The notes beneath the pieces were generated by a model. The model did no database searches, was not told where the DNA came from, and saw only the letters and a program-made list of their open reading frames with translations. The translations under genes were made by a program, and so were the position numbers. Below, one piece after another: positions 4,107-64,000 of a stretch of 64,000 bases of DNA (positions within the stretch are counted from its first letter, which is position 1; every line of letters starts with the position of its first letter). This DNA is from Dehalococcoidia bacterium (GTDB taxonomy: Bacteria; Chloroflexota; Dehalococcoidia; Lucifugimonadales; UBA3495): positions 2,827,295 to 2,891,294 of the forward strand of contig CBDBHA010000002.1 of NCBI GenBank assembly GCA_965205495.1, written 5' to 3'.

Positions 4107-4271
4107 CCCCAACCCACCAACAGGGGGCGCCCCAACAACCGCGCGCCCCCCCAATCCCAACCCAAAAAAGTTTTGCGCAGCTTTTCCAAAAGCGGGCCCC
4201 CCGGTCCCAAACCTCTGGTGTATAATAACCCCACTCCCATTCACTTCCCCATCGCCCCCACGAGGCTTGCC

Positions 4272-5003
4272 ATGACCAGCAGACCGGCCCCAAGGAAGCC
4301 GTCCGATGCACCCGTCGGCCGGTTCAAGCCGCATCCCAGAACGCCGGTTGACTTGGGCGACGGCAAGTTTCCGGAGTTCCCCCCCAGGGGCGATATGCAG
4401 AACCCAATCTATCTACACCTTCCCGGACACCTGGCGGCCCTCAGCCTCCACTTCGGTTCGGGCGAGACCACCCTGGTCCTGGGCGAGGTCCCCGTGGGCT
4501 TGGACCTGCGCCAACGGCGGGGCCTGCGGGTGCCAGACCTGATTGTTGCTTTCGACGTGGACCCCGCCAGGATTATCGCCAACCGGGGCTATTCCATTGA
4601 GCGGGAAGGTAAATCCCCGGACTTCGTCCTGGAAATAGCGTCCGAGAACACCGCCGAGAACGACGTTACCGGTAAGCCGTGGAACTACGCCGCCTTCGGC
4701 ATCCCCGAGTACTGGCGGTTCGACCCTACTGGAGGGGACTTGTACGGCGTGCCCCTGGCCGGCGACTCGCTTTCCGAAGACGCCTACCAACCCATCGAGA
4801 TAATCACGGTGGACGAAACCCACCACTGGGGCCGCAGCGCCGTGCTGGGGTTGGACCTGTGCTGGGAAGAGGGGCAACTGCGTTGGTACGACCCGTCGGC
4901 GGGCCAGTACTTACGGACCTTCAACGAAACCGACGACGCGCGAATCACCGCCGAGGAACGGGTCCGCCAACTGGAAGCCGAAATCAGACGTCTCCAAGGT
5001 TAG
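4272..5003 (+). CDS. Uma2-family (DUF820) putative endonuclease
   Basis: PDLIVAF..., SPDFVLEIASENT, Y..FGIPEYWRFDP and a coiled C-terminus are typical of Uma2. I prefer the internal ATG 4272 over the track start at 4173. Confidence 0.75.
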   Translation: MTSRPAPRKPSDAPVGRFKPHPRTPVDLGDGKFPEFPPRGDMQNPIYLHLPGHLAALSLHFGSGETTLVLGEVPVGLDLRQRRGLRVPDLIVAFDVDPARIIANRGYSIEREGKSPDFVLEIASENTAENDVTGKPWNYAAFGIPEYWRFDPTGGDLYGVPLAGDSLSEDAYQPIEIITVDETHHWGRSAVLGLDLCWEEGQLRWYDPSAGQYLRTFNETDDARITAEERVRQLEAEIRRLQG

Positions 5004-9421: not shown

Positions 9422-9511
9422 CTGTCACCCCGAGCGTAGCGAGGGGCCTAAAATCCCTTCCCAACACAATCCCCAACTCTGGATTCCAGCCTCCACCACA
9501 ACTACCACGGG
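9422..9511 (+). repeat. Repeat family E, copy 1 (CTGTCACCCCGAGCGTAGCGAGGGGCCTAAAATCC...)
   Basis: Near-identical to 51857-51943. Contains the hairpin CCCC-GA-GC-GTA-GC-GA-GGGG. Confidence 0.8.
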
Positions 9512-9515
9512 GATG

Positions 9516-9761
9516 CTAGCTTTCCTTCCATCGCCGACCGCTCCCCTCCAACTCCGCTACCGACTCAACCAGCCGCAAAGCGTTGCGTGGGCTCCCCAGA
9601 AGATGTGCCGTCTCTTCCAATGCGTGGTAATCTTCCCGCGACAACATCACCACCGTCTGCCCGTTCCTCCGGGTTATAATTACTCGTGAATGGTCTTGGC
9701 ATACTCGGTCCATCGTTTCCGCCAAGTTGCTGCGGGCATAGTTACAGGTTATTGACTTCAT
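9516..9761 (-). CDS. Phd/YefM-family antitoxin (no cognate toxin gene visible)
   Basis: ARSNLAETMDRV...VIITRRNGQTVVMLSREDYHALEETAHLL is a Phd/YefM signature. Both flanks are occupied by repeats. Confidence 0.8.
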   Translation of the reverse strand: MKSITCNYARSNLAETMDRVCQDHSRVIITRRNGQTVVMLSREDYHALEETAHLLGSPRNALRLVESVAELEGSGRRWKES

Positions 9762-9838
9762 GCGGCTTCTCCAAAAAACTGTCTGGTTGACTTTTCATGA
9801 CCTAAACCCAGGCAACAATCCGCGCCAACCTCATCCCC

Positions 9839-9959
9839 CGGACAATTGCAAAGTCCCTACGAACACCTATCGTCATTCCCACGAAGGCGGTAATCCAGGT
9901 CGTACCTGGCTGGCAAGCGTCCATTTCCCTCAGAATTGCATCGTTTTACAATCGTCCTG
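9839..9959 (+). repeat. Repeat family A (MITE-like, ~122 bp), copy 1, partly decayed
   Basis: Terminal inverted repeats GGACAATTGCAAAGT...ACAATCGTCCTG. Aligns along its full length with the five other copies. Confidence 0.85.
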
Positions 9960-9996
9960 CCCTAAACCCGTCTCAGAACCGTAAAGGAAGGCCCTC

Positions 9997-11019
9997 ATGG
10001 ATTTTGGAATCTTCACCATGTTCACCACTAGGGAAGACGGCTCCCAACACGACGCCTTCCGGGATTGGTTCGACGTCGTCCACGCCGCCGAAGACTTGGG
10101 ATTAGACACTTTTTGGGTCGGCGAGTCCCACTTCCGCCCGGAACGCGCCGTCATGGCCGCGCCCCTCATCGGCGCCACCGCCATCGCCGCCCAGACCCAG
10201 CGCATCAAGGTCGGCCTCGCCGTCCAGGTCCTCCCCCTGGCCAACCCCCTCCGCATCGCCGAGGAAGCCGCCATTGTCGACCATATCAGCGAAGGCCGTC
10301 TCGTCTTTGGCGTCGGACGCAGTTCCTTCCTGGAGTCCTACCAGGGCTACAACATCAACTACTCCGAAAGCCGGGGCCGATTCGCGGAGTCCTTGGAAAT
10401 CATCCTCCAGGCCTGGGGCGACCGGCCCTTTTCCTACGACGGCGAGTTCTACCAGTTCCACGAAGTCGACCTGGTCCCCAAACCCTACCAACAGCCCCAT
10501 CCCCCGGTGCGGGTCGCCGTCGAAAGCCGCGACACTTTCGCCATGACCGGCAGCCTCGGCTTCCCCATCTTCATGCGCCACCAAATGTCCATCCCCGAGC
10601 TGCAAGACCTCTTGGCCCAGTACCAAGAAGCCCGCCACCTTGCCGGTTTCCCCGGCCCCAACGACGTCATCCTTCAGGTTGGCGCTTACGTCGCCGAAAC
10701 GGAAAAACAGGCTTACGATGACCCCCAGCCCAGCGCCATGCACCGGGTTCGAGTCATCCAGCAGCACCTCCACCAGACCGGCGACCAGGAGACCTTCGAA
10801 CGCCTTCAGGCCTCCGCCAACGTCACCTACGACCAACTCCTGGAGCGTCTGGCCGTTGGCACTCCCGACGCTGTTGCCGATAAAATCCGCTGGTACCAGG
10901 AGGAGTTGGGCATCACCGGCATCTCGCTGGACGTCAACCCCGGCGGCCAAATCCCCCACGATAAAGTCATGAACTCCCTCCGCCTCCTGGCCGAAGAAGT
11001 AATTCCCCAGTTCCGCTAG
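9997..11019 (+). CDS. LLM-class (luciferase-like) flavin/F420-dependent oxidoreductase
   Basis: FWVGESHF, GRLVFGVGRS and PKPYQQPHPPV blocks are typical of luciferase-like monooxygenases. Confidence 0.85.
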   Translation: MDFGIFTMFTTREDGSQHDAFRDWFDVVHAAEDLGLDTFWVGESHFRPERAVMAAPLIGATAIAAQTQRIKVGLAVQVLPLANPLRIAEEAAIVDHISEGRLVFGVGRSSFLESYQGYNINYSESRGRFAESLEIILQAWGDRPFSYDGEFYQFHEVDLVPKPYQQPHPPVRVAVESRDTFAMTGSLGFPIFMRHQMSIPELQDLLAQYQEARHLAGFPGPNDVILQVGAYVAETEKQAYDDPQPSAMHRVRVIQQHLHQTGDQETFERLQASANVTYDQLLERLAVGTPDAVADKIRWYQEELGITGISLDVNPGGQIPHDKVMNSLRLLAEEVIPQFR

Positions 11020-13518: not shown

Positions 13519-13861
13519 TGTCTTGCTAGAAGACGAGCAGGCGATTCCCAGTGTGCGCGGCCTTGGGCCGGTTCAAGGTCTTTCATGGGGAACCCGATTA
13601 TAGCACCGGCTTGGCAACGGGTACCTGCTTGCAAACCTTGGTCTACCCCCGCCACCCGCCGTACCACCCCCGCCACCTGTCGTTCCGGCCCCCCCGTCGT
13701 ACCCGCCCCGCCGCTAACCCGTCGTTCCGGCCTTGAGCCGGAACCCAGAAATCCCCGCCATGATTTCAGACCGACCCCACCACACCACCCCCGACATCCT
13801 TCGTTCTGGCCCCGCTAACCCGTCGTGCCCGCCCCGCTAACAGTCATACCGTCCCTCCCAA

Positions 13862-30105: not shown

Positions 30106-30341
30106 GGCAAGGGGCAAGTGTCAGTGACTTTTTTGGGGGGAATGTCCTTCGACGGAGCTCAGGATGATGGGGGTGGTTCGACGGGCTCACCACGAGCGGG
30201 GTGGGGCTCACCATGATGGAGGGATTTCTGGATTCCGGCTCAAAGCCTGCCTCGTACCCGATACGGGGGCCGGAATGACGGACCTTGGGTTGGGCTAACC
30301 CCTTCATTTTGAACAGTTACCACTGACACTTGCCCCTTGCC
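30106..30341. repeat. Perfect 21-bp inverted repeat bracketing 194 bp of nested repeats
   Basis: GGCAAGGGGCAAGTGTCAGTG (30106-30126) and its exact reverse complement (30321-30341). Confidence 0.9.
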
Positions 30342-32003: not shown

Positions 32004-32206
32004 CGTAAGTGTTCAGAATTGATGAGTCATCCTGGCATTAAACCGTCATCCCGGCCTCGAGCCGGAATCCAGGAATCCCGGTCATTTCGAACGCCGGCCT
32101 CTCCCTGACCATTCCGGATCCCGGCTCAAAGCCTGCCCCGTACCCGATACGGGGGCCGGAATGACGGATCTTGGGTTGGGCTAACTCCTTCATCCTGAAC
32201 AGTTAC
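32004..32206 (+). repeat. Repeat family D (MITE-like, long form, 203 bp)
   Basis: Termini CGTAAGTGTTCAGAAT...CTGAACAGTTAC. Core hairpin CCGGC-TCAAAGCCTG-CCCCGTA-CCCGA-TACGGGG-GCCGG. Confidence 0.85.
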
Positions 32207-53163: not shown

Positions 53164-53296
53164 CGTAACTGTTCAGAATTAAGGGGTTAGCTCAACCCAG
53201 GATCCGTCATTCCGGCTCAAAGCCTGCCCCGTACCCGATACGGGGGCCGGAATGACGGTTTAATGTTGGATGACCCCTCAAGTCTGAACACTTACG
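53164..53296 (-). repeat. Repeat family D, short form (133 bp), inverted relative to 32004-32206
   Basis: Termini CGTAACTGTTCAGAAT...CTGAACACTTACG. The core hairpin is the same as in D3. Confidence 0.85.
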
Positions 53297-53363: not shown

Positions 53364-53439
53364 GGGGATATAGCTCAATTGGGAGAGCGCGGCGTTCGCA
53401 ATGCCGAGGTTGGGGGTTCGAGCCCCCCTATCTCCACCA
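53364..53439 (+). tRNA. tRNA-Ala (anticodon CGC), CCA encoded
   Basis: Cloverleaf folded by hand. Acceptor GGGGATA/TATCTCC with the G3:U70 Ala identity pair, anticodon loop TTCGCAA, T-loop TTCGAGC. Confidence 0.9.
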
Positions 53440-53442
53440 CCG

Positions 53443-53518
53443 GCCCCTGTAGCTCAGAGGATAGAGCGGCGGCGTCCTAAGTCGCGCGTCGGGGGTTCGA
53501 ATCCCTCCAGGGGTACCA
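53443..53518 (+). tRNA. tRNA-Arg (anticodon CCT), CCA encoded
   Basis: Cloverleaf folded by hand. Acceptor GCCCCTG/CAGGGGT (G1:U72), D-arm GCTC-AGAGGATA-GAGC, anticodon loop GTCCTAA, T-arm GGGGG-TTCGAAT-CCCTC. Confidence 0.85.
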
Positions 53519-53631
53519 CTTCCCACATAAAAGCCTTGATTTAGCTTCCCCCAAGCCTTACAATTCTTACCACGTAGTATAACCGTGTGGTAATAACCGC
53601 GTGGTAAGTGTGGTAAGAATTGGAGGGCGCA

Positions 53632-54846
53632 ATGGGGAAGCTAACCGCGAAGATGGTAGGCCAAATCACAGAGGCGGGGCGGTATGGCGACGGGGCGGGC
53701 CTGTATCTTCTGGTGACACCTGTCGGCACGAAGTCCTGGATTCAGCGTGTCCAGGTCGGCGGCAAGCGGACTGACAAGGGTTTGGGCGGCGTTGCCAAGG
53801 TGAGCCTGTCCAACGCCCGGAAGATTGCAGCCGCCAACCTTGCGACTATCAAGGGCGGCAAGAATCCATTCGAGCCCGGCCACGTTCCCGCCCCGATCAC
53901 GGTCAAGGAAACGCCAGCCATTCCGACGTTCGCGGATGCTGCGCGGGTTGTCTACGCCCTGAACCTTGACGAATGGGGCGCGGCGACCGCGAAACGCTGG
54001 TTACGCCGTCTTGAGATTCACGCCTTCCCGACGCTGGCGGACAGGGATGTTGCCGAGATAACCCGCGCTGACTTGGCGGACCTGCTGACGCCCCTACGGG
54101 GAGAGAACCACGAAACGGCGCGCAAGGTTCGGCAAGCATTGGCTAAGGTGTTCCGATGGGCGCGGGCGCACGATTACCGCATTGACGATCCCGCCGATGA
54201 TGCCCTTGGCGAACTGGTGAAGAAGGTCAAGCACGTACCGGAACATCACCGGGCGTTGCCCTACTGCGAGGTAGGGGCGGCAATCCGCAAGGTTCAATTC
54301 GGGTATGCCCTGCGAGTGACCGGGCTGGCGTTTGAATTCCTGATTCTCACGGCGGCGCGAACGTCTGAGGTGCGCGGGATGGTATGGGCTGAGGTAGACC
54401 TTGAAAAGGCGGTATGGGAGATTCCCGCCCAAAGGATGAAAGCGCGGCGTTCTCACCGTGTGCCGCTGTCTGACCAAGCTATGGCCATCCTGCGGCAAGT
54501 CCGCCATATTCCCGATCCCGACGCCGCCGACGATTCGATATTCCAGTTGGTAGAGGTAACGGACGGGCATGTTTTCCGGATGCCTACCGGCAAGCCGCTA
54601 TCTGAAAACGCCCTGCTGGACCGTTGCGAGAAAGACAAGATCGGCGCGACTCCACACGGAATGAGAACGTCATTCAGGGGCTTTGCCAAGGCTGAATACG
54701 GCGCCCGGTTTGAAGCTATCGAACTGGCGTTGGCGCACTCGATTGGAACGTCGGTAACGCAAGCCTACGACCGCGAGGACCTGCTAGAGGAACGCCGCCA
54801 GATGGCGCAAGCGTGGGCGGACTACCTGGACCCTGCGCCGTTTTAA
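53632..54846 (+). CDS. int: Tyrosine integrase, P4-like (DUF4102 arm-binding N-domain)
   Basis: LTAKMV......G.YGDG.GLYL.V...G.KSW N-domain. The C-terminal catalytic region has ...ARTSEV..., HGMRTSFR and LAHS...Y. Confidence 0.9.
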   Translation: MGKLTAKMVGQITEAGRYGDGAGLYLLVTPVGTKSWIQRVQVGGKRTDKGLGGVAKVSLSNARKIAAANLATIKGGKNPFEPGHVPAPITVKETPAIPTFADAARVVYALNLDEWGAATAKRWLRRLEIHAFPTLADRDVAEITRADLADLLTPLRGENHETARKVRQALAKVFRWARAHDYRIDDPADDALGELVKKVKHVPEHHRALPYCEVGAAIRKVQFGYALRVTGLAFEFLILTAARTSEVRGMVWAEVDLEKAVWEIPAQRMKARRSHRVPLSDQAMAILRQVRHIPDPDAADDSIFQLVEVTDGHVFRMPTGKPLSENALLDRCEKDKIGATPHGMRTSFRGFAKAEYGARFEAIELALAHSIGTSVTQAYDREDLLEERRQMAQAWADYLDPAPF

Positions 54847-54882
54847 TTGCTATAGCACCGGGCATTTTGGTACAATCACGGC

Positions 54883-55248
54883 ATGAACCGATGGCAACGA
54901 TGGTTTGCGTCGGAAAGGCCCCCCCGGTACCATTTCTTGTTATCACCGTTTGGATTCGCTCTCGTGACTTGGCGGATAACGGTGTATCAAACGGGGCAAG
55001 CCGAGTTTGAAAAGCTAGCAGAATACGCTAGTATTGGCGCAATCATATACGGGATCATAGCCGTGACCGTCGAATTAGGAGGACTGGCAGTGTTTTATAC
55101 GATAGGAGCGATCATCAAATACGTAGGCGAAAGAAAGGTGGAACAAGACGCCAAAGCCATTCAACGCGTGGCCAACAATCCTGCGCTATTGCAGCGAGCC
55201 AATGAGGCTGCTAGCCAGAAAGAGCGCGAACCTGTCAGCACTAAGTGA
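54883..55248 (+). CDS. Hypothetical small membrane protein
   Basis: 121 aa with hydrophobic segments FLLSPFGFALVTW and IGAIIYGIIAVTVELGGLAVFYTIGAII. Confidence 0.45.
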   Translation: MNRWQRWFASERPPRYHFLLSPFGFALVTWRITVYQTGQAEFEKLAEYASIGAIIYGIIAVTVELGGLAVFYTIGAIIKYVGERKVEQDAKAIQRVANNPALLQRANEAASQKEREPVSTK

Positions 55249-55305
55249 CGTGTTCCGATAAACCGGGATAGGGCGGACTAACCCACCGCACACCTCCAAC
55301 GAATG

Positions 55306-55340
55306 ACCGCCCCGCTCTCAGTCGGGGCGGTTTCCTTTTT
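55306..55340 (+). terminator. Rho-independent terminator
   Basis: ACCGCCCCG-CTCTCAGT-CGGGGCGGT followed by TTCCTTTTT. Confidence 0.7.
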
Positions 55341-55346
55341 GCCCAA

Positions 55347-55375
55347 TTGACACCCTTGACTGTCGGGTATACAAT
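55347..55375 (+). promoter_or_regulatory. Near-consensus sigma-70 promoter
   Basis: TTGACA (55347-55352), 17-nt spacer, TACAAT (55370-55375). A second TATACT follows. Confidence 0.6.
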
Positions 55376-55408
55376 GGGTATACTACCGATTGAAAGGAGG
55401 TGTTGCCG

Positions 55409-55765
55409 ATGTCACGGGAACGCAAACCGATCCAACTGCAACCGGGAACCTTCAAGGTGCTAATGGCCCTGCGGGAAAGAATCTTTGAATTGCAGGGGCG
55501 GCGGCTCACCGTCGATGAGACCGTCCAGGTGGCATTAGCGGGCATGACTGAAGCACCGCTCCCACCGGTCTATGAGGAACAATTGAAGCGGACCCTAGTT
55601 AGCGTGATCGGACAACTCCTGGTGCGGGTGCGCCCTGACCTGGCCGCCAAGTTTCGGAGTGTAGCCTTTAACTCTAGCACCGGCATGGCCGTGGTGGACT
55701 TGGAAGGCGACGATGATCCGCTGCAGATCATGGCCCGCGATCCTGCGGGCATGGTGAAAAACTAA
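55409..55765 (+). CDS. Hypothetical protein (possible regulator)
   Basis: ATG 55409 lies 8 nt after AGGAGG. 118 aa, no family recognised. Confidence 0.45.
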   Translation: MSRERKPIQLQPGTFKVLMALRERIFELQGRRLTVDETVQVALAGMTEAPLPPVYEEQLKRTLVSVIGQLLVRVRPDLAAKFRSVAFNSSTGMAVVDLEGDDDPLQIMARDPAGMVKN

Positions 55766-55920
55766 AGGCAAAAAGAAAACCCGCTGCGTAAACAGCGGGC
55801 AACCAAGGAGATACACGAACTAGGCAAGAATATACAACGGAAGGCCAAAAGTCAAACGACTCCAGCACTTTATCGGCGGCGGAAGTTGCCGAGCAAGACC
55901 ATTCCCTTAGCCTGTTCCCG

Positions 55921-57069
55921 TTGGATATTCAAGGGGCTGCTGAGGCGTTTCAGTGGCGACACGGTTACGGGGAACTTTACGACCTGGTGCGCCCCTACCC
56001 TGCCTACGCCTTCGATGCTGGTGCTGGTGTCTGGCGGGAATGGATGTACGGCAAGGGTTGGCAGGAACGGGATAGCATCCTGCCCGTGATGACCAACATA
56101 GTGGCCGCCCTATGCGCCCTGGAAGCTCACCGGGCCAAACCGGATGGGCCACCCGAAAAGGTAGAGGCCGAATACCGGAAACTGCGGCAGCGGCATTTCG
56201 GGCCGACCGTCGATAAGGCTATTAAGCTGGCGGCGGCTGAATGCAGCGTTTCCGATTGGGACCCAGACGGGATGATGCTGGGTATGCCCGATGGTGACTG
56301 TCTCTACATCACTCCAGAGAACACCAAGAGCCCTGTCCATAACCTCGAGCAGGAAGCCACCGACCACATTACCCAAAGCCTCGCGACCAGCCCCACGGAG
56401 CCTACGCAGCTATGGCTGGATTTTCTGGCATCGTTGACCGGCAAAGACATCATGCTGGAACACGCGCTACAGGTATGGACCGCGGCGGCGTTGCTGCCCG
56501 GTAATCGCTTCCACAAGGCGCATATCCTCTACGGCGACGGCAACACCGGCAAATCAACCTATCTCAACGTCGTGCGCCGGGCAATGGGCGACTATGCGGC
56601 CACCGCCCGATCCAGCGTGTTTGTCTCGGAGAAAGATAACCATCCCGCCGAATTGTTGCCGTTCACCCAAAAACGCCTGGTTGTGCTGCCCGAACTCCCA
56701 CGCGGCGCATTGCGGTCGGACCTCCTGAAAACGGTAACTGGTGGGGATGCTATCAGCGTTCGGGGTATGCGCCAGAACCCGCGCACGGCAACACCAACGG
56801 CAACGCTAATGTTCTCTGCCAATGAACTCCCCAGCATCCGCTTGGTGGACAATGCCCTGCGCCGCCGGCTGCTGATATGGCCTTTTGACTACTGCCCCGA
56901 AACCATAGACCACCACCTGGAGGACAAGCTGACATCACCCAAACATATCGGCGGCGTGGTGGGCTGGTTGCAGGCGGGCATTATCAAATACGTGCGGATC
57001 CAAAACGCCGGCGAGGATATGCCCCTACCTGCTGCGGTGGTGGACGCAACGGAACGGTACTTTGATTAG
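55921..57069 (+). CDS. Phage/plasmid primase-helicase, P4/D5 family (SF3 helicase), cut by in-frame TAG
   Basis: Walker A GDGNTGKS. The P4-family block LVVLPE......LK..TGGD.I..R....NP......A.L.F..N.LP. The conserved C-terminal continuation is found in frame after the TAG (57070-57285). Confidence 0.85.
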   Translation: MDIQGAAEAFQWRHGYGELYDLVRPYPAYAFDAGAGVWREWMYGKGWQERDSILPVMTNIVAALCALEAHRAKPDGPPEKVEAEYRKLRQRHFGPTVDKAIKLAAAECSVSDWDPDGMMLGMPDGDCLYITPENTKSPVHNLEQEATDHITQSLATSPTEPTQLWLDFLASLTGKDIMLEHALQVWTAAALLPGNRFHKAHILYGDGNTGKSTYLNVVRRAMGDYAATARSSVFVSEKDNHPAELLPFTQKRLVVLPELPRGALRSDLLKTVTGGDAISVRGMRQNPRTATPTATLMFSANELPSIRLVDNALRRRLLIWPFDYCPETIDHHLEDKLTSPKHIGGVVGWLQAGIIKYVRIQNAGEDMPLPAAVVDATERYFD

Positions 57070-57280
57070 GCGGACGTTATCCGGCGGTGGCTGGACGAAA
57101 CCTGCGACGAGGGCGGCGAAACCCAATTCGCTGTCCTATACCGTTCCTTCACCGGATGGTGTGAATCCCACAACCGGAGGCCAATAGCTGAAACCAGCTT
57201 CGGGCTATGGATGGGTAGGCATTATGACCGGCGGCGCACAAAGGAAGGAATACTCTACCCCGTCTCCCTGGACTATAGCC

Positions 57281-57421
57281 GGGTGTAGGGTATGTAGGGT
57301 TTTTCCGACTTTAGCGTGTATAAGGAAATGGAGAACAGGTATATAGATTGTATTAAGTTGGGTATTTGGAATTTTTCCGTGATGCGTATAAAGTCGGAAA
57401 AACCCTACATACCCTACACCC
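57281..57421. repeat. 33-bp perfect inverted repeat with AT-rich 75-bp spacer (candidate ori/cruciform)
   Basis: GGGTGTAGGGTATGTAGGGTTTTTCCGACTTTA (57281-57313) and its exact reverse complement (57389-57421). Confidence 0.9.
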
Positions 57422-57448
57422 TCTGATACGAAGCGCAACCTTGCCCCG

Positions 57449-57709
57449 ATGTTCAGGATAGAATTGAATGAATGGAGGTTTTTGGTGGTAAGCGAATACG
57501 ATGAAACTGGTGGTCATCTGATTCTTCGGAAGTTGACGCAAACCTATATTGGAGCGTCGCCATCTACAAATAGGCTGGTATTTATGATGGAAGCACGCGA
57601 AGAGAGCGAGGAAAATCCGCAGGAGTTTAGAGCTGCGCTGACAGAAGAACAGGCGAAATATGTCTTAGAGACCATGACGGAATGCATGACAAAGCTTGGT
57701 TGGCTCTAG
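57449..57709 (+). CDS. Hypothetical acidic 86-aa protein directly upstream of terL
   Basis: ORF with lower GC, in the position where a small terminase or packaging accessory gene would sit. No motif recognised. Confidence 0.35.
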   Translation: MFRIELNEWRFLVVSEYDETGGHLILRKLTQTYIGASPSTNRLVFMMEAREESEENPQEFRAALTEEQAKYVLETMTECMTKLGWL

Positions 57710-57781
57710 GGAACCCTGCTATAGGAAACGCTGGGGGGCTGTGCAACACTGGCGGGTGTGTTCCGTGTAAAAGGGGATGAT

Positions 57782-59215
57782 ATGAAACTTCGGCGTTTTC
57801 AGACCAATTTCATACGGCGGGCGATGGACCCGGCGGTTAAGGTTGCCGTGCTTTCAACCCCACGCGGAAACGGTAAATCGTTTTTGGCGGCGCACCTAAT
57901 CACCCGCGCGTTGACTCCCGGCGATGTGCTGTTTCAGCCGGGCAAGGAAATTGTCCAATGCGCCGGGAGCATTGAGCAAGCGCGGATGGTGTATGGGTTT
58001 GTCCGCGCGGCGTTGGAACCCACCGGGGAATACCGCTGGATAGACTCAGTGACCAGGTTGGGAGCGACTCATATTGCCAGCAACACGAAGTTGAGGATTA
58101 TATCCTCCAATGGCAAGACCGCTATGGGGCTGGTCAACGTGAGTCTGGCGGTAGCGGACGAACCTGGCAGCTGGGAACTCGCTGGCGGATTGCTGATGTG
58201 GGACGCCTTGACCGGGGCATTGGGCAAACCGGGCAGCCCGTTGAAGATCATCGTGATTGGGACATTGGCGCCGATGGCGACCGGGGCCGGACATTGGTAT
58301 TGGAACCTAGTGCATGACGGAACGCGGGGCAGCACCTACGTTGAGGCTATCCAGGGGCAACTTGAGGGTTGGGATACCTGGCCGGTAATCAGGCGGTGCA
58401 ACCCGTTGACCGCCATTAGTGCGGAGTTTCGGGCTCAGCTTTTGGAAGAGCGGGACGAAGCGCGGGCGGATACCCGGCTCAAGGCGCGTTTCCTTTCGTA
58501 CAGGCTAAATGTTCCATCCGCGGACGCCGCCGAAGTCCTATTGACCACCGATGATTGGAAGGCGGTAGAGCGGCGGGAAGTCCCGGACGCCGAGGGTAGG
58601 CCGGTGGTTGGCGTGGACCTGGCGGCGGGACGGGCATGGTCGGCAGCTTGCGGAATCTGGCCCAACGGTAGGGTTGAAGCGTTGGCAGTAGCGCCGGGCA
58701 TACCTGGCCTTGAGGCTCAAGAGAAGCGGGACCGCGTACCAGCGGGAACGTACCAACGCCTACATGACATTGGGCAGCTTGCCATTGCCGAGGGGCTCCA
58801 GGTTCAACCCCCGGCGCAGCTATGGGCATCAATCCGGGCGCGTTGGGGGAGGCCAAGGTTGATAGTGTGCGACCGTTTCCGGTTGGCGGAATTGCAAGAC
58901 GCGGTGAAGAACGGGGCACGGCTGGAACCACGGGTAACGCGGTGGTCTGAGGCGGCGTTTGACATTCGGGCACTACGCCGGCAGGCGAAGGATGGGAACC
59001 TGTCCGTTGACCGGGATAGCCGGTTGTTGCTGGCGACTTCGTTATCGCGGGCGCGTGTCCAGAACGATGATGCGGGAAGTGTGCGGCTGGTGAAGCACGG
59101 GACCAACAACACGGCGCGTGACGATGTAGCTGCGGCTCTCGTGCTGGCGGCGGGAGCGGTAGAGCGGAAAGCCAAGCGAACTGGGGGTATCTACCTTGGC
59201 AGCACGAACGATTAG
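57782..59215 (+). CDS. terL: Terminase large subunit
   Basis: The N-terminus LRRFQ..FIRRA........VLSTPRGNGKS is the Terminase_1 Walker A region. The C-terminal nuclease-like half has conserved Asp residues. ATG 57782 follows AAAGGGGA. Confidence 0.8.
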   Translation: MKLRRFQTNFIRRAMDPAVKVAVLSTPRGNGKSFLAAHLITRALTPGDVLFQPGKEIVQCAGSIEQARMVYGFVRAALEPTGEYRWIDSVTRLGATHIASNTKLRIISSNGKTAMGLVNVSLAVADEPGSWELAGGLLMWDALTGALGKPGSPLKIIVIGTLAPMATGAGHWYWNLVHDGTRGSTYVEAIQGQLEGWDTWPVIRRCNPLTAISAEFRAQLLEERDEARADTRLKARFLSYRLNVPSADAAEVLLTTDDWKAVERREVPDAEGRPVVGVDLAAGRAWSAACGIWPNGRVEALAVAPGIPGLEAQEKRDRVPAGTYQRLHDIGQLAIAEGLQVQPPAQLWASIRARWGRPRLIVCDRFRLAELQDAVKNGARLEPRVTRWSEAAFDIRALRRQAKDGNLSVDRDSRLLLATSLSRARVQNDDAGSVRLVKHGTNNTARDDVAAALVLAAGAVERKAKRTGGIYLGSTND

Positions 59216-59246
59216 CACCTTCCACGCGGCGTTAGACCGGCGGGTG

Positions 59247-59486
59247 ATGAAGCGGGTACGGTGGGAGGTGTTGACCGCCCAGAACTGGACCTGCCAAACC
59301 TGCGGACGATGGGGAAACCACTGCGACCACGTAATCCCGTTGTTCCAAGGCGGCGCGCCCTACGACCTGGGCAACCTTCAAATACTTTGTGCAAATTGCC
59401 ACTACTCCAAATGCCGCCTTGAGCAAACGCAACCGCCATCGCCTGAAGTCACGGCATGGGACGCCTACCTTGCAAGCGTAGTATAA
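59247..59486 (+). CDS. HNH endonuclease
   Basis: W.CQ.CG......CDH..P...GG......NLQ.LC..CH..K. The start could be GTG 59244, ATG 59247 or TTG 59196. Confidence 0.85.
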   Translation: MKRVRWEVLTAQNWTCQTCGRWGNHCDHVIPLFQGGAPYDLGNLQILCANCHYSKCRLEQTQPPSPEVTAWDAYLASVV

Positions 59487-59544
59487 CCGAGACTAGGTAT
59501 CAATAAGTGGTATGATTAGGGCAAACCACTAGGAGGTTTGCCCT

Positions 59545-60764
59545 ATGACTCCGCTTCAGACTTTGGAAGTCCGGCAAGGGGAGGTGAAAATCCGCCTGGC
59601 CGAACTTGGCGGCATGGCGGAACTTACCGAAGAAACCCGCGCCGAACTGGACACCCTGCGCACCGAGTACACCGACACCGAACGGCGCATGGCCGCCTTG
59701 CGGCTTGCTGAGCCGGACCGGACGCCTATCATTGCCCGCACCGCCCCGAGGGCACCGAATACCGCGAGATGCTGGAACGGGCCAACCTGGGCACCATCTT
59801 TGACGTTCTAATGTCCCACCAGAACCCCACCGGCGTTGAGGCCGAACTTCAACAGCATTTGCACCTGGCCGGAAACCAGATTCCGCTTGACATGCTGCGG
59901 GGCTCGGGCGGCGGCGGGCGCGGCATGGGCGGGCTGGAAACCCGCGCCGTTACGCCGGGCGCGGCCAACGTTGGGCAGAATCAGCAACCCATTATTCCGT
60001 ATGTGTTCCCGATGTCGGCGGCGGCGTTTTTGGGGGTGAACATGCCTTCTGTGCCAGCCGGTGACGCCGTTTTCCCGGTGTTGACCGGAACCCTTGACGT
60101 TGGGACGCCAGCCGAGAACGCCAGCCAAGCGGAAACCACCGGCTCGTTTTCTTCGGACGTGTTGACCCCGACCAGGTTGCAGGCGAGTTTCTTCTACTCC
60201 CGCGAGGACCGCGCCCGCTTTGCCATGATGGACGCTGCGCTACGGGAGAACCTGAGCGACGGGTTGGCCGACGGGTTGGACGACCAAATCCTGAGCGGAA
60301 CCAATGGGTTGTTCACCACCTTAACCGCCAATGCCCAAACCACCGACGACACTTTCGACAGCTACCTGAATAACCTCGTTTGTTCTCAAGTGGATGGCCG
60401 GTATGCCGCCATGACTTCGGACCTGTCAATGGTGGTTGGAAGCGCCACCTACGGCGATATGGGCGCCACCTACCGCAACACCAGCGTTGACCGTTCCGCC
60501 CTGGACCGGGTGATGGAACTCACCAGCGGCGTAAGGGTTTCCGCCCACGTTCCCGCACCGGCCAGCAACCGGCAGGACGTGGTAATCCGGCGCGGCATGT
60601 CCATGACGGCCGTTGCGCCTACCTGGGAGGGTGTAACCCTGATTCCCGATGAAATCACTAAGGCCGGGACCGGCCAGATCGTGATAACCGCCGTGATGCT
60701 GTACGCCGTCAAAGTCTTGAGGACCGGCGCTGGCCTGATTCGGCAAGGAACGGACCACAGCTAG
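59545..60764 (+). pseudogene. HK97-fold major capsid protein, frameshifted in a C-run
   Basis: The coiled-coil N-terminus (59545-) is in frame 1 and the capsid body (..-60764) in frame 0. Adding one C to the C-run at 59744-59747 would give ...IARTAPEGTEYREMLERANLG... Confidence 0.75.
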
Positions 60765-60766
60765 GC

Positions 60767-61213
60767 ATGGCCGACCCGATTCTATTCAGCGGACCGGCGG
60801 GCGCGGGCAAAACCCAAGCTGCCCGCCGGTTACTTGCCGAAGCCACCGGGCCGATGGTGGCGGCTGATTTTCAGGCGTTGCTAGCGGCATTGCTTTTGCT
60901 TGAACGCCTACCCGATGGCCGTTACCCGGCGCGGCTGGCGTCTCAGGCGGCATGGTTGTTGCCACTGGTGGAATCGCTCAGGCAGACGGTTATCACCTTC
61001 GCGCGGGACCGTGACATAGACGTGGTGGGAACTAACAGCGATGGCAACCCAGCACGGCGGGTATACCTGCTCCAACGCCTTGGGGCGGGCTCTACCGAAC
61101 GGATAATTGACCCTGGATTTGACGTTGTGACGGAACGCTTGTCAAACCCGGATGGAACCATTGACGAACAATGTGTTGAAGCGCGGGACCGCTGGTACTC
61201 CCGGAGGGTGTAA
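60767..61213 (+). CDS. P-loop NTPase-like hypothetical protein
   Basis: Walker A GPAGAGKT at residues 9-16. 148 aa. Confidence 0.45.
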   Translation: MADPILFSGPAGAGKTQAARRLLAEATGPMVAADFQALLAALLLLERLPDGRYPARLASQAAWLLPLVESLRQTVITFARDRDIDVVGTNSDGNPARRVYLLQRLGAGSTERIIDPGFDVVTERLSNPDGTIDEQCVEARDRWYSRRV

Positions 61214-61702
61214 ATGGAAACACTATTTGCAGCGTTGGAGTTTAGGGCCGACGAAACGCGGGACAGTCCAGGATTGCTTTCTGGCGTTTTGATGGCCTAC
61301 GGGACGCGCGCCAACGACCGCCCGGAGCTATTCGAGGATGGCGCGCTTTACTGGCGGGACTCAGGCATCGTAATCAGAGAACAACACAACCGGGCCGCGC
61401 CGATTGTGCGGGCTCAGCCCTACATGGAAGGGCGGGAGCTCCGGGTGAACGTTCCCCTTCCCAACACGCAACGAGGGCGGGACGCTGCTTTTGCCATGCA
61501 AGGGGATAACCCACTGTACACCGGCCTATCCGTCGAATTCAACGCCGAACGGGAGACGCGGCGGAACGGGTTGAGGGTGATAACCCGCGCGTTCCTGGAC
61601 GGGGCAAGTCTGGTCGACACACCGGCATACCTGGGCAGCACCGTTGAAGTACGGGAAGAATCCGGCCTATTCGTCCCCCGGAGTGTCTTTACATGGCTGT
61701 AA
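61214..61702 (+). CDS. HK97-family prohead protease
   Basis: Size and pattern (..F.G.....Y.....D...E.F..GA........V...H......P.....L..GLSVEF...........R.I....L.G.SLVD.PAY) match S78-like proteases. Confidence 0.7.
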   Translation: METLFAALEFRADETRDSPGLLSGVLMAYGTRANDRPELFEDGALYWRDSGIVIREQHNRAAPIVRAQPYMEGRELRVNVPLPNTQRGRDAAFAMQGDNPLYTGLSVEFNAERETRRNGLRVITRAFLDGASLVDTPAYLGSTVEVREESGLFVPRSVFTWL

Positions 61703-62241
61703 CCATTACGCGGGCGCAACTGGCCGCCCGGATACGCCTGGGCCGGACGCCGACCGAACTGGACGAGGCCGACCAAATCCTGGCCTACGCTACCGAGGCC
61801 GTAACCCACCACGCGCCCGACGCGCCCGACGTGGTGCATAACGAGGCCGCTTACAGGCTGGCCGGATACATCTATGATCGGCCATTTGCCAGCGCGGATA
61901 CCCGATTCTCCAACGTCTTGCGGAACTCCGGCGCGGCGGCTGCCCTGCTGCCCTACCGCCAACACCGTTTGGGTTTGAGCGGTAGCGATGATACTGCGAC
62001 CGCACCAGCGACCGCAGCGGGCAACGCCATTACCGGGCTGGCGATTGTCGGCGGGAACATCATCATCACCTTTGGCAGCGGCGCAACCCAAGTTGTACCG
62101 CTACCGCCGTCCATTGGCGGCGTGACCGTTACCAGCGTCACTTTCAACGCCATGACCAACGCGATTGATGTTGAATACTCCAACGGCGCGGGGGTTGCCA
62201 TACCGCTTCCCGCTGGCCTTATCACCTGGCCGGGGGTGTAA
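61693..62241 (+). CDS. Head-tail connector (gp6-like / DNA-packaging QLRG-type) protein with extra C-terminal domain
   Basis: The N-terminus ITRAQLAARIRLG......D..IL.YATEAV....P....V.NEAAYRLAGY.YD resembles the gp6-like family. Confidence 0.5.
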   Translation: MAVTITRAQLAARIRLGRTPTELDEADQILAYATEAVTHHAPDAPDVVHNEAAYRLAGYIYDRPFASADTRFSNVLRNSGAAAALLPYRQHRLGLSGSDDTATAPATAAGNAITGLAIVGGNIIITFGSGATQVVPLPPSIGGVTVTSVTFNAMTNAIDVEYSNGAGVAIPLPAGLITWPGV

Positions 62242-62595
62242 ATGCCACTAGATAGACCTATCACCATCGGCATCCGCGGGCCGGACGACACCAACGCAGC
62301 CGGTCAATTCGTCCCGGGAGTGAAGGTTGATTACCCGGTTTTCGCTACCGCCCTTGATATTTCCGTTCAACGGAACTTGGAAGTTGGCGGGGCGCGGCTG
62401 GAAGCTGACCGCATTTTTCGCGTTAGATGGTTCGAGGAACTGGCCGTTGCCCCCGTTACCAGCATTGAACTTGCCGACGAACTGGCGTTGAACTACACCG
62501 TTACCGACGTTTCCGAATTTGTCGGCAGATTCTCCGATTTGAGGAGGCGTTGGCTGGACCTGGAATGTTCGAGGGAGGCGCAAACCCGAATATGA
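62242..62595 (+). CDS. Head-closure / head-tail adaptor-like protein
   Basis: 117 aa. Position and the pattern ...R.I.I..........G.........VWA........E.......R...F.+R fit this class. Weak call. Confidence 0.4.
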   Translation: MPLDRPITIGIRGPDDTNAAGQFVPGVKVDYPVFATALDISVQRNLEVGGARLEADRIFRVRWFEELAVAPVTSIELADELALNYTVTDVSEFVGRFSDLRRRWLDLECSREAQTRI

Positions 62596-63644
62596 AATGG
62601 CCTTGGCAATCCAAGATGGAACACCGGGCAGATTCCAGTTACACCGATGCGTTCCTTACTGCCCTACTGTCACGGGCCACCGGGCAATCAACGGCCTTTC
62701 CTGCGGCGGTGGGCGCGCTGGAGGCGGCTTCCGGGCTCACGGCAAGGGCCATTTTTGCCACCGCCGTTGTGCAAACGGGCTCTACGGCCATCCTGGGCGC
62801 ATTGACGCCATCCTGCCTTGCCATGATCGGGCGGGCGATGGTCAGGAAAGGCGAAATTGTTTTCTACATAGACACCAGCCGGGGAATGATTGACCTGCTA
62901 CCATGCCAGAGTCACGACGTTGACGGCGGGCCCAACCCGGCAACGTGGATTTATCGTTGCACGACGGCGGGACCGGAGCGGACCTACACCTTCGACAACA
63001 TGCCGGCGGATTCAGTGGTTCACATCATGTATAGCCGAGACCCTGAGCAACCATTTAGGGGAATCGGGCCGCTGCAATCTGCCCAGCTTACGGGGCGGCT
63101 GGCGTCCGAAACCCTGGCGGCGTTGGCGGATGAATCCAGCGGACCGCGCGGGCATATCATGGGGCTACCCGTTGATGGTGATGATCCAACCCTTGCACCG
63201 TTGAAAGCGGCCATCGGCAAGTTGAAGGGAGAGGTAGCTTTCTTGGAAGATGGCGATTACGGCGGCGCGGCTGGCGGTGGGAAGGTGATGTTGAAACCCG
63301 AACGGCTGGGCCCGGAACCTACGGCGGCGTTGGTGGAACTATTCAAGATTAGCCGGGAGGACGTGCTAGCGGCCTGCGGCGTCAACCCGGCGTTGTTTGA
63401 AACCGCGCCCGGCGTTGCCATGCGGGAAGCATACCGGGAATTTCTTTTCAGCAACGTTGCTGCGCTGGGGCGGCTGGTGTCCACCGAATTGACCGCCAAG
63501 CTAGGCGACACGGTTTCCCTGGACTGGGAAGAACTCAGGGCCGGGGATATTGCCAGCCATGCGCGGGCATTCGGAACGTTGGTGCAAGGCGGGATGGACC
63601 TGGACCGCGCGGCGGCGCTATCGGGCCTGCTGGCGGCGGAATAG
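62592..63644 (+). CDS. Phage portal protein (HK97-like)
   Basis: 350 aa with ATGA overlap to the previous gene. The blocks ...R.....G...F......G.....L.P... and the C-terminus EELRAGDIASHARAFGTLVQGGMDLDRAAALSGL are portal-like. Confidence 0.7.
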   Translation: MKWPWQSKMEHRADSSYTDAFLTALLSRATGQSTAFPAAVGALEAASGLTARAIFATAVVQTGSTAILGALTPSCLAMIGRAMVRKGEIVFYIDTSRGMIDLLPCQSHDVDGGPNPATWIYRCTTAGPERTYTFDNMPADSVVHIMYSRDPEQPFRGIGPLQSAQLTGRLASETLAALADESSGPRGHIMGLPVDGDDPTLAPLKAAIGKLKGEVAFLEDGDYGGAAGGGKVMLKPERLGPEPTAALVELFKISREDVLAACGVNPALFETAPGVAMREAYREFLFSNVAALGRLVSTELTAKLGDTVSLDWEELRAGDIASHARAFGTLVQGGMDLDRAAALSGLLAAE

Positions 63645-63655
63645 GAGGAGTAGAT

Positions 63656-63850
63656 TTATGACTTACCGGATTCGTCTGCGCCATTCTGACCTTTTTGTTG
63701 TAGGTCCCGGCCATACTGTTGAAGTACAAGGCCCAGCTCTATTGCTTCCTCCGGGTCGAGAGACGCTATTAGGTGTTCCACCGGGTCAGTTTCAGGATAG
63801 CCAACCGCTTGCCCCATCAGATCCACGCGCCTTTCCACAATCCGAACCAC
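63656..63850 (-). CDS. Hypothetical 64-aa protein (strand choice uncertain)
   Basis: The minus-strand product looks more protein-like than the overlapping Pro-rich + strand ORF (63658-63882). However, that + ORF has a good RBS (AGGAGG 7 nt upstream of ATG 63658). Confidence 0.3.
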   Translation of the reverse strand: MVRIVERRVDLMGQAVGYPETDPVEHLIASLDPEEAIELGLVLQQYGRDLQQKGQNGADESGKS

Positions 63851-63885
63851 AAGATAAATTGCTGGCTCCTGATCAGGACTAGTAG

Positions 63886-64000
63886 TCAGTCAACTTTGGA
63901 ATCAAAAGGGTAGAGGCGGTGAAGTTTGGTTCGAGCATCCTGGGTTTTGAACCGCCACTTGATACCAACTCGGGCGGCGTTGCGCTCCCGCACCAGTGCC
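63886..64000 (-). CDS. C-terminal 38 aa of an IS630-family-like transposase (rest outside window)
   Basis: The minus-strand translation ...ALVRERNAARVGIKWRFKTQDARTKLHRLYPFDSKVD* matches the RNAAR..(I/V).W(R/Q)FTT.DAR.KLK.LYP tail I remember from IS630-type transposases. Confidence 0.5.
   Translation of the reverse strand, partial: ALVRERNAARVGIKWRFKTQDARTKLHRLYPFDSKVD

Follow-up and report, generated by a model that had tools for sequence, protein, structure and literature searches.

A compact integrative element at a tRNA-Arg gene of a Dehalococcoidia bacterium is probably one copy of a family of about 10 kb that behaves like capsid-forming phage satellites

The 64,000-nucleotide (nt) stretch of DNA analysed in our study (hereafter, the window) comes from a Dehalococcoidia bacterium (assembly GCA_965205495.1, contig CBDBHA010000002.1), and its right-hand end carries an integrase gene, a helicase gene and a set of phage head genes that follow one another downstream of a tRNA gene. 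We interpret this region as probably one copy of a family of integrative elements, about 10 kb in length and also including episomal variants, whose behaviour resembles that of capsid-forming phage satellites. An initial annotation of this DNA had already proposed a satellite of this kind and not a full prophage, and the proposal is supported by at least nine relatives with defined limits, all of them 9.0-10.9 kb long and devoid of any recognisable tail or lysis gene. The target gene, tRNA-Arg(CCT), lies right after tRNA-Ala(CGC) (53364-53439); both were located with ARAGORN and Rfam, and the Rfam scan of the window returned these two tRNAs and nothing else. From the tRNA pair to the end of the window, all credible genes are on the plus strand, and the transposase end at the edge is on the minus strand. 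The coordinates of the features are collected in Table 1.

The integrase contains the Arm-DNA-bind_3 (PF13356), Phage_int_M (PF22022) and Phage_integrase (PF00589) domains and matches PHROG 1 at 2.7e-46; its annotated distance from the tRNA gene, which ends at 53518, agrees with our coordinates. The large terminase (TerL), the HNH endonuclease, the HK97-fold capsid protein, the prohead protease and the portal protein of the initial annotation were all confirmed in position by Pfam, PHROGs or NCBIfam, and the IS630-like transposase fragment at the window edge corresponds to a DDE_3 C-terminus within the last 120 nt. The annotation had also reported no tail or lysis genes before this insertion sequence (IS), and none was found with Pfam or PHROGs in the window up to that point. 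Our study adds a P-loop gene, located between the capsid and protease genes, and three probable lesions of the window copy, all of which were absent from the earlier description.

Table 1. Features of the element between the tRNA-Arg gene and the end of the window (aa, amino acids; ORF, open reading frame).
Feature	Coordinates	Strand	Remarks
tRNA-Arg(CCT)	53443..53518	+	Integration target; attL core CTCCAGGGGTACCA at 53505-53518
attL arm and integrase upstream region	53519..53631	+	GTGGTAA repeats; 10-mer GTAGTATAAC at 53574-53583; inverted repeats
P4-type tyrosine integrase	53620..54846	+	ORF; probable start ATG 53632, 114 nt past the tRNA
121-aa ORF	54883..55248	+	Hydrophobic stretches; directly after the integrase
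121-aa early gene	55400..55765	+	94% aa identical to L011 s119
P4-family primase C-terminal/SF3 helicase gene (DUF5906)	55921..57285	+	In-frame TAG 57067-57069; last 72 codons (57070-57285) cut off
Perfect 33-nt inverted repeat	57281..57421		Arms 57281-57313 and 57389-57421; AT-rich 75-nt spacer; candidate replication origin
Small ORF upstream of TerL	57449..57709	+	Small-terminase slot, assigned from position alone
Large terminase TerL	57758..59215	+	PHROG 9, 1.9e-39
HNH endonuclease, packaging accessory	59196..59486	+	PF01844 at 4e-8; PHROG 589 at 2.2e-16
Candidate capsid-operon promoter or operator	59478..59544	+	GTAGTATAAC 10-mer, followed 23 nt later by a TATGAT box
HK97-type major capsid gene	59545..60764	+	PF05065 at 1.1e-6; TIGR01554; N-terminal coiled-coil (delta-like) region
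148-aa P-loop protein	60767..61213	+	Walker A motif GPAGAGKT; inside the head module
Prohead (S78/HK97-type) protease	61214..61702	+	Weak matches: PF04586 1.3e-3, PHROG 80 8.7e-6, TIGR01543 3.8e-3
Adaptor-like protein, 182 aa	61693..62241	+	Conserved helical N-domain of ~95 aa and variable C-terminal beta domain
Head completion (stopper) protein, 117 aa, SPP1 gp16/HK97 gp7 type	62242..62595	+	PF05521, Foldseek
Portal protein, short (350 aa), last head-module gene	62592..63644	+	PF04860 at 6.6e-11
64-aa ORF, variable post-portal slot	63656..63850	-	Called as a gene on L001 and L005
IS630-family (DDE_3) transposase 3' end	63881..64000	-	Last 120 nt; 85% aa identical to two DDE_3 transposases in L011

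Four of the relatives with defined limits (the loci and contigs compared are designated by L numbers) are integrated and bounded by tRNA-derived direct repeats with host genes on both sides, and five are circular metagenome contigs. Two of the integrated copies use the same target as the window, tRNA-Arg(CCT): L011, on a 5.9 Mb contig, has a portal 77% identical to that of the window and measures 10,371 bp, and L012, on a 5.26 Mb circular contig, has a portal 65% identical and measures 10,307 bp. In both of them the same 12-14 nt of the attL core reappear as attR (CTCCAGGGGTACCA). Each element stops where 14 nt of the tRNA 3' end are directly repeated, 390-440 nt past the portal stop, after which host genes resume. 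The other two are located at tRNA-Ala genes: L044 (1929-12333) at tRNA-Ala(TGC), with a 17-nt repeat and 10,387 bp, and L013 at tRNA-Ala(GGC), with a 19-nt repeat and 9,557 bp, where IMG/VR had excised the same 9.1 kb as a provirus. The five circular contigs (L020, L021, L041, L043 and L047) were recognised by terminal overlap, and their units carry the same head module. A second copy of the tRNA 3' end, or attR, was not found inside the window. The motifs of the attL arm also adjoin attR in L010, L011 and L012, whose integrases are 84-88% identical in aa sequence to that of the window. In L006, with a portal 99% identical to the window copy, host genes come directly after the portal.

The same compactness is seen when the family is sampled through its portal and capsid genes. 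The exact portal protein of the window is present on metagenome contigs, and 212 portal homologues were found at 90% clustering; among the contigs of the best 120 of these 212, 30 measure 9-11 kb, 10 measure 7-9 kb and 2 measure 11-13 kb. The capsid search of IMG/VR, for which a narrow capsid alignment was used since the broad one was too divergent for a locus search, returned four contigs with the capsid gene, all of 4.8-9.5 kb. Approximately 20 independent loci, with portal identities as low as about 38%, retain the order TerL-HNH-capsid-protease-adaptor-(stopper)-portal; these are the loci whose gene context was examined, the portal clusters being far more numerous. No tail or lysis family was detected among the Pfam-annotated genes of the complete elements, whether att-bounded or circular, or among the extra ORFs tested. 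Apparent tail genes after the portal of L047 were considered and rejected: the ends of this contig overlap inside TerL, which gives a circle of 10.9 kb with the extra genes in the early region.

Modules are combined in a mosaic fashion across the family, two TerL types and no fewer than four replication types being represented, which is typical of mobile elements. L006, a variant at tRNA-Ala(TGC), is 71-85% identical to the window at the nt level from capsid to adaptor, locally reaching 93%, and 92-96% identical over the portal gene; this uneven identity indicates recombination between elements. In addition, since the adaptors of L044 (P0122) and of the window (P0121) share the same longest contig, of 3,469,667 nt, the source genome probably contains two members of the family.

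Special attention was given to the replication module. As annotated, the region 55921-57069 scores 137.6 bits against TIGR01613 ('phage/plasmid primase, P4 family, C-terminal'; cut-off 108.7) over profile positions 32-256 of 304, and reading through the TAG codon, which adds 72 codons, raises the score to 170.7 bits and extends the alignment to positions 32-304 of 304. PHROG 1156 is covered only at profile positions 383-744 of 855. The primase-helicase profiles therefore align over their C-terminal halves only, and the window gene has no primase catalytic domain. The initial annotation of a P4/D5 primase-helicase was right about the P4 family, to which TIGR01613 assigns the gene (DUF5906 is matched as well), and has to be corrected in that only the C-terminal helicase half is present, and this is truncated by TAG. 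A perfect inverted repeat begins exactly at the would-be end of the read-through helicase ORF, and L012 (4353-4518) and L044 (5247-5360) likewise have iteron-like inverted repeats just past the 3' end of their replication gene; we regard the repeat of the window as a candidate replication origin. The replication types in the family include the DUF5906 helicase, AAA_25, a PF03090 replicase and a ParA-bearing module with a helix-turn-helix protein. Circular members of 9-11 kb without a detectable integrase were also identified, namely L041, with ParA (4095-4730), L021, with the PF03090 replicase (2515-3495), and L047; the ParA-type partition ATPase and the plasmid-type replicase point to a possible plasmid-like lifestyle for part of the family.

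In the packaging genes, the window TerL is 73-80% identical to those of L046 and L047, 53% to that of L013 and about 28% to those of L010, L011 and L012. Two TerL types are distinguished in the family, one of about 480 aa, as in the window, and another of about 543 aa (L010 3730-5358, L011 4758-6389, L012 4916-6547); they are only about 28% identical over the C-terminal half, and the remaining head module is 60-90% identical. Each type is paired with a different small upstream ORF. An unannotated small ORF precedes TerL in every member, and the ORFs that occupy this slot in L010, L011, L012 and L044 are unrelated to that of the window (57449-57709), for which there was no family match in Pfam, PHROGs, NCBIfam and PADLOC (hereafter, the four collections).

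A 10-mer, GTAGTATAAC, links the packaging region to the ends of the element. In six elements the capsid gene is preceded by a TATAAT-like box with the 10-mer 22-28 nt upstream of it (the arrangement of the window being repeated in L010, L012, L044, L046 and L047), and the 10-mer is also found near the integrase promoter and in the attR arm. Its exact sites start at 5633 and 10177 in L010, 11355 in L011, 6844 and 11394 in L012, 7805 in L044, 4185 in L046 and 837 in L047; in the window they lie at 53574-53583 and 59478-59487, and a further site on the minus strand (55377-55386) has one mismatch. Most elements of the close clade examined contain 2-4 copies (L046 has one), where about 0.02 per element would be expected by chance. 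The 10-mer may be a shared operator or activator site, possibly the point at which a helper or the element itself switches on the head genes.

The P-loop protein encoded within the head module is kept in the close clade (L006, L010, L012, L044 and L046) and absent in distant relatives; searches of PADLOC, PDB, Pfam, PHROGs and NCBIfam returned matches at the level of the Walker A motif only and no function. The protease, whose matches in the window are weak, has homologues in 20 ORFs across the loci, and that of L020 matches PF04586 at 2.6e-7.

The neck genes deserve separate consideration, as they bear on the question of what the head would be joined to. The product of 62242-62595 is well supported as a stopper, in agreement with the head-closure gene of the initial annotation: of 67 homologues, 51 match PF05521, with 1.3e-7 as the best value, the protein of the window aligns along its whole length at E = 0.026, and the AlphaFold2 model (pLDDT 84) has as its top Foldseek hits the neck or stopper chains of Bas63, NF5, SaPI1, T1, Pam3, RcGTA and SPP1 gp16 (probability 1.0, TM 0.5-0.57). 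The hhalign comparison with HK97 gp7, which used a single-sequence template, was weak. Stoppers of the gp16 type form, in solved structures, the platform where long tails dock, and it follows that the heads are meant for a tail that the element does not encode.

The gene that precedes the stopper had been described as a gp6-like connector. Its conserved position beside the portal gene (20 ORFs across the loci) and its helical fold (AlphaFold2 N-domain pLDDT about 90) stand, and the direct matches are weak: PF05135 was obtained at 0.003 in 1 of 17 members, and the 'Head to tail adaptor' of BFVD with probability 0.95, TM 0.54 and E 0.1. Negative results came from the PDB profile search, from Foldseek against the PDB with a model of both domains and from the hhalign comparison with HK97 gp6, single-sequence templates being poorly suited to it. 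The C-terminal beta domain of this protein is hypervariable: it is absent in L011, where the protein has 104 aa, comprises about 85 aa in the window (61975-62241) and reaches about 550-700 aa in the long fusions of L024 (5397-7367), L025 (5019-7418) and L049 (3685-5934), which are 650-800 aa in total. Rib/Ig-like Pfam matches to it were obtained for 12 of the 73 homologues, BFVD gave similarity to tail-fibre-like proteins at E of about 1e-4, and such domains may act as neck fibres or as a host-binding device.

Integration at tRNA sites, a self-contained set of head and packaging genes, circular forms and modular exchange were all observed, and on this basis the following life cycle can be proposed. 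Insertion and excision would be carried out by the P4-type integrase where a tRNA gene has its 3' end, in the window that of tRNA-Arg(CCT), in keeping with the att sites seen in relatives. The excised circle would then be copied by an exchangeable replication module, the P4-family primase C-terminal/superfamily 3 helicase in the window and AAA_25, the PF03090 replicase or the ParA-type module in relatives, from a putative iteron-like origin just downstream of the replication gene. The element would build its own small HK97-fold procapsid from the capsid protein with its N-terminal scaffold-like domain, the S78-type protease and the 350-aa portal, presumably sized for about 10 kb, and its own TerL and HNH proteins, whose genes are present, would fill it with the genome of about 10 kb by what may be cos-type packaging. 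The adaptor-like protein and the gp16-type stopper would seal the head, and the long tail, and probably lysis functions too, would be taken from a co-resident or co-infecting phage, in a form of the 'tail piracy' of phage-inducible chromosomal islands that form capsids (cf-PICIs).

The cf-PICIs are the known systems most relevant to our element. Under the definition implemented in SatelliteFinder, an integrase and a replicase must be present together with TerL, HNH, portal, protease, capsid, adaptor and connector, and tails and holins must be absent (PMC10085698). The survey that used it found cf-PICIs in Proteobacteria and Firmicutes, in agreement with the statement of the initial annotation that such satellites are described mainly in these groups, and several separate derivations of their head modules from phages have been reported (PMC10085698). 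Their capsids are small, filled with DNA and made without tails, which are then obtained from phages (PMC10085698; 10.1101/2025.02.11.637232). Like EcCIEDL933 and KpCIDSM30104, the family studied here consists of integrative islands with an integrase, a primase or replicase and a full head and packaging set: we found an integrase at one end together with site-specific integration, a primase-replicase, TerL, HNH, portal, capsid, protease and stopper, and no tail or holin gene. No AlpA, MerR or Stl regulator was recognised, the small ORFs being without a match in the four collections, and a divergent regulator may be present. The family differs from the described cf-PICIs in having the portal gene last and the capsid gene before the protease gene, in the lack of a detectable TerS or AlpA/MerR/Stl-type regulator, in its smaller size (9-10.9 kb), in the episomal state of part of its members, which carry ParA or a plasmid-type replicase, and in its hosts, which are uncultured bacteria from metagenome assemblies. 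The capsid, portal and stopper had no tblastn match in 50,697 phage records, in which TerL reached only about 22% identity, and the portal had one match of 28% among plasmids, to a Pseudorhodobacter replicon. By content, the family is thus supported as fitting the functional definition of a cf-PICI, set apart from the described lineages, and an origin of its head module independent of theirs is plausible. Our literature searches surfaced nothing that links SatelliteFinder or phage satellites with Chloroflexota, and their design cannot prove absence.

Other systems resemble the element in part. P4-like satellites share the P4-type integrase (Arm-DNA-bind_3) next to a tRNA gene, the P4-family primase C-terminal/helicase domain and a total length of about 10-11 kb; P4, however, encodes neither capsid nor portal nor terminase, and it relies on Sid and Psu to remodel the capsid of P2 and on Delta and Epsilon as well. 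In the window, Pfam, PHROGs and NCBIfam detected none of these four proteins and no AlpA, and given its own head genes and the lack of Sid, Psu and Delta, the element is not P4-like. The Streptomyces satellites MiniFlayer and MulchRoom, along with other capsid-encoding satellites, also carry encapsidation genes of their own, in soil bacteria that belong to neither Proteobacteria nor Firmicutes (PMC10690885; PMC12822802). They are described as lacking key replication genes, whereas the present family has integrases and replication modules, and no BLAST similarity to the window capsid or portal was found for them in the phage collection. With the head modules of HK97-like siphoviruses the family shares a capsid protein with an N-terminal scaffold-like region, the S78-type protease, the PF04860 portal, the HNH-assisted terminase, a putative gp6-like adaptor and a gp7/gp16-like stopper. 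The HK97 order is TerS-TerL-portal-protease-capsid-adaptor-stopper followed by tail genes; here it is TerL-HNH-capsid-(P-loop)-protease-adaptor-stopper-portal, after which the element ends, and this is not a circular permutation of the former. Nor does the family correspond to a complete temperate prophage, given that no tail, tape-measure or lysis gene is present in the att-bounded relatives of 9.6-10.4 kb or the circular ones of 9.0-10.9 kb, or to a gene transfer agent (GTA), given its integrase, replication genes, several tRNA sites and circular forms.

It is important to consider the points that weigh against the satellite interpretation. The interpretation is drawn from gene content and element limits, and the helper phage is hypothetical; the right end of the window copy lies beyond the window, and its size is taken from relatives. 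Searches of the four collections recognised neither a small terminase nor a repressor, an AlpA-type regulator or an excisionase, the adaptor assignment of 61693-62241 is weak, and no kinship to described cf-PICIs was seen by tblastn among the phage records searched. Many ORFs of the relatives are unannotated, and a very divergent minimal tail is possible in some members (L020, L047 and the adaptor fusions L024, L025 and L049).

Other explanations of the region were considered. The window copy could be the decayed remnant of an ordinary temperate prophage of 35-50 kb whose modules for tail, lysis and lysogeny disappeared by deletion or on account of the IS, and its nonsense codon, frameshift and IS, together with a right end outside the window, speak for this. 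We consider this very improbable: the same compact content and order recur in some 20 independent and divergent loci, precise tRNA-derived att repeats stand 9.6-10.4 kb apart, five contigs close as circles of 9.0-10.9 kb, and the capsid gene is in no large IMG/VR genome. Independent deletions would not be expected to produce identical limits each time, so that this recurrence of content, order and limits largely refutes a deletion remnant of a large prophage. A second possibility is an autonomous minimal virus or transfer particle, in which a stub formed by portal, adaptor and stopper, with the fibre- or Ig-like C-terminal domains of the adaptor, would deliver the DNA without a helper tail. 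Free circular genomes exist, some members have unannotated ORFs after the portal, and the hypervariable beta domain of up to about 700 aa resembles phage fibre domains; if this were true, no smaller self-sufficient viruses or transfer particles consisting of head and neck would be known, and the adaptor ring would be the host-recognition device. It is nevertheless an unlikely explanation, since gp16-type stoppers dock long tails in solved structures, the C-terminal domain is not essential, being absent in the 104-aa protein of L011, lysis genes are not present, and we know of no HK97-fold virus that delivers its DNA without a tail. Lower still stands the possibility that the genes form a domesticated particle system that serves the host, either GTA-like or an encapsulin-like compartment, and not a selfish element. 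The head-only content and the presence of the RcGTA neck among the Foldseek matches of the stopper would suit it; GTAs, however, encode tails and have no integrases, and here an integrase, att sites, replication modules, circular forms, several tRNA sites and mosaic exchange are found, with TerL, HNH and portal implying DNA packaging, unlike an encapsulin. We regard it as extremely unlikely.

A different question is whether the particular copy in the window is functional, and we consider that it is probably impaired by the helicase nonsense codon, a 2-nt frameshift in the capsid gene and the insertion of an IS630-family element between the portal and the expected attR. The TAG codon is a substitution common to three assemblies (the window and the metagenome contigs L003 and L004, 99.9% identical) and the 72 codons lost through it agree with the family profile. 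In the capsid gene, a CC insertion at 59744-59745, within a run of four C (59742-59745) where L004 has two, separates an 88-aa scaffold-like ORF from a 331-aa shell ORF; these two align to residues 1-67 and 75-407 of intact relatives. L003 has the insertion, and L004 lacks it and contains an intact capsid gene of 405 aa; the insertion may be either a real polymorphism or a homopolymer error. The IS lies about 236 nt past the portal stop, whereas attR lies 370-440 nt past it in four relatives, and the metagenome contigs L001 and L005, of the same strain, break at 63932, as is expected at a repeat. Beyond the IS we would expect GTAGTATAAC...CGTGGTAA, the core CTCCAGGGGTACCA and host genes. The copy might instead be fully functional, if the TAG and the CC insertion were consensus errors or were tolerated, the split capsid working as separate scaffold and shell, and if the IS lay outside the element. 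The intact capsid gene of L004, the occurrence of homopolymer errors in low-coverage long-read assemblies and the ATG of the 331-aa ORF itself speak for this; the sharing of the TAG among three assemblies and the position of the IS relative to attR in relatives make it rather doubtful. The family is clearly active, even though the window copy is probably impaired.

The remaining ORFs of the region contribute less to this interpretation. The ORF directly after the integrase (54883-55248) has no match in the four collections and no homologue in the other loci, and its two strongly hydrophobic stretches suggest that it probably encodes a strain-specific accessory membrane protein, such as an exclusion or holin-like protein. 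The early gene at 55400-55765, likewise without a family match in the four collections, is a candidate regulator by its position alone. In the post-portal slot, the ORF at 63656-63850 has no family match in NCBIfam or PADLOC, and the small ORFs found there in relatives are unrelated to it. A single GTDB representative genome was recovered, the Dehalococcoidia metagenome-assembled genome L002 (CBDDEJ010000008.1), which contains a 387-aa portal homologue (9446-10609), with 56% identity across 160 aa; the remaining genes of the family were not found near it, and it may be a remnant or belong to an unrelated phage. Outside the element, the large host ORFs are ordinary metabolic genes. An intergenic repeat of about 50-200 nt, resembling repetitive extragenic palindromic (REP) sequences or miniature inverted-repeat transposable elements (MITEs), was noted in the window just left of the tRNA pair (53165-53295) and at 32005-32206, 30264-30320 and 13715-13750, and also in a related genome (L006 13619-13797).

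These results point to a widespread and undescribed family that occurs almost only in metagenome assemblies. The portal profile yielded 1,682 clusters of 50% identity at E<=1e-30, the best 150 matches all having E<=1e-87 and mostly 340-370 aa, and these clusters suggest that the family may be large. Its members compress a complete self-packaging head into about 10 kb, with no BLAST-detectable relative of the capsid, portal or stopper among sequenced phages. The att sites, the origin-like repeats and the conserved 10-mer ahead of the capsid gene offer experimental handles, and the elements could serve as a compact chassis for DNA packaging. If they do take tails from phages, tail piracy would be a general strategy that extends well beyond the known hosts, the elements would constitute unrecognised vehicles of gene flow, and a fresh reading of those 'viral' contigs in metagenome catalogues that measure about 10 kb would be needed.

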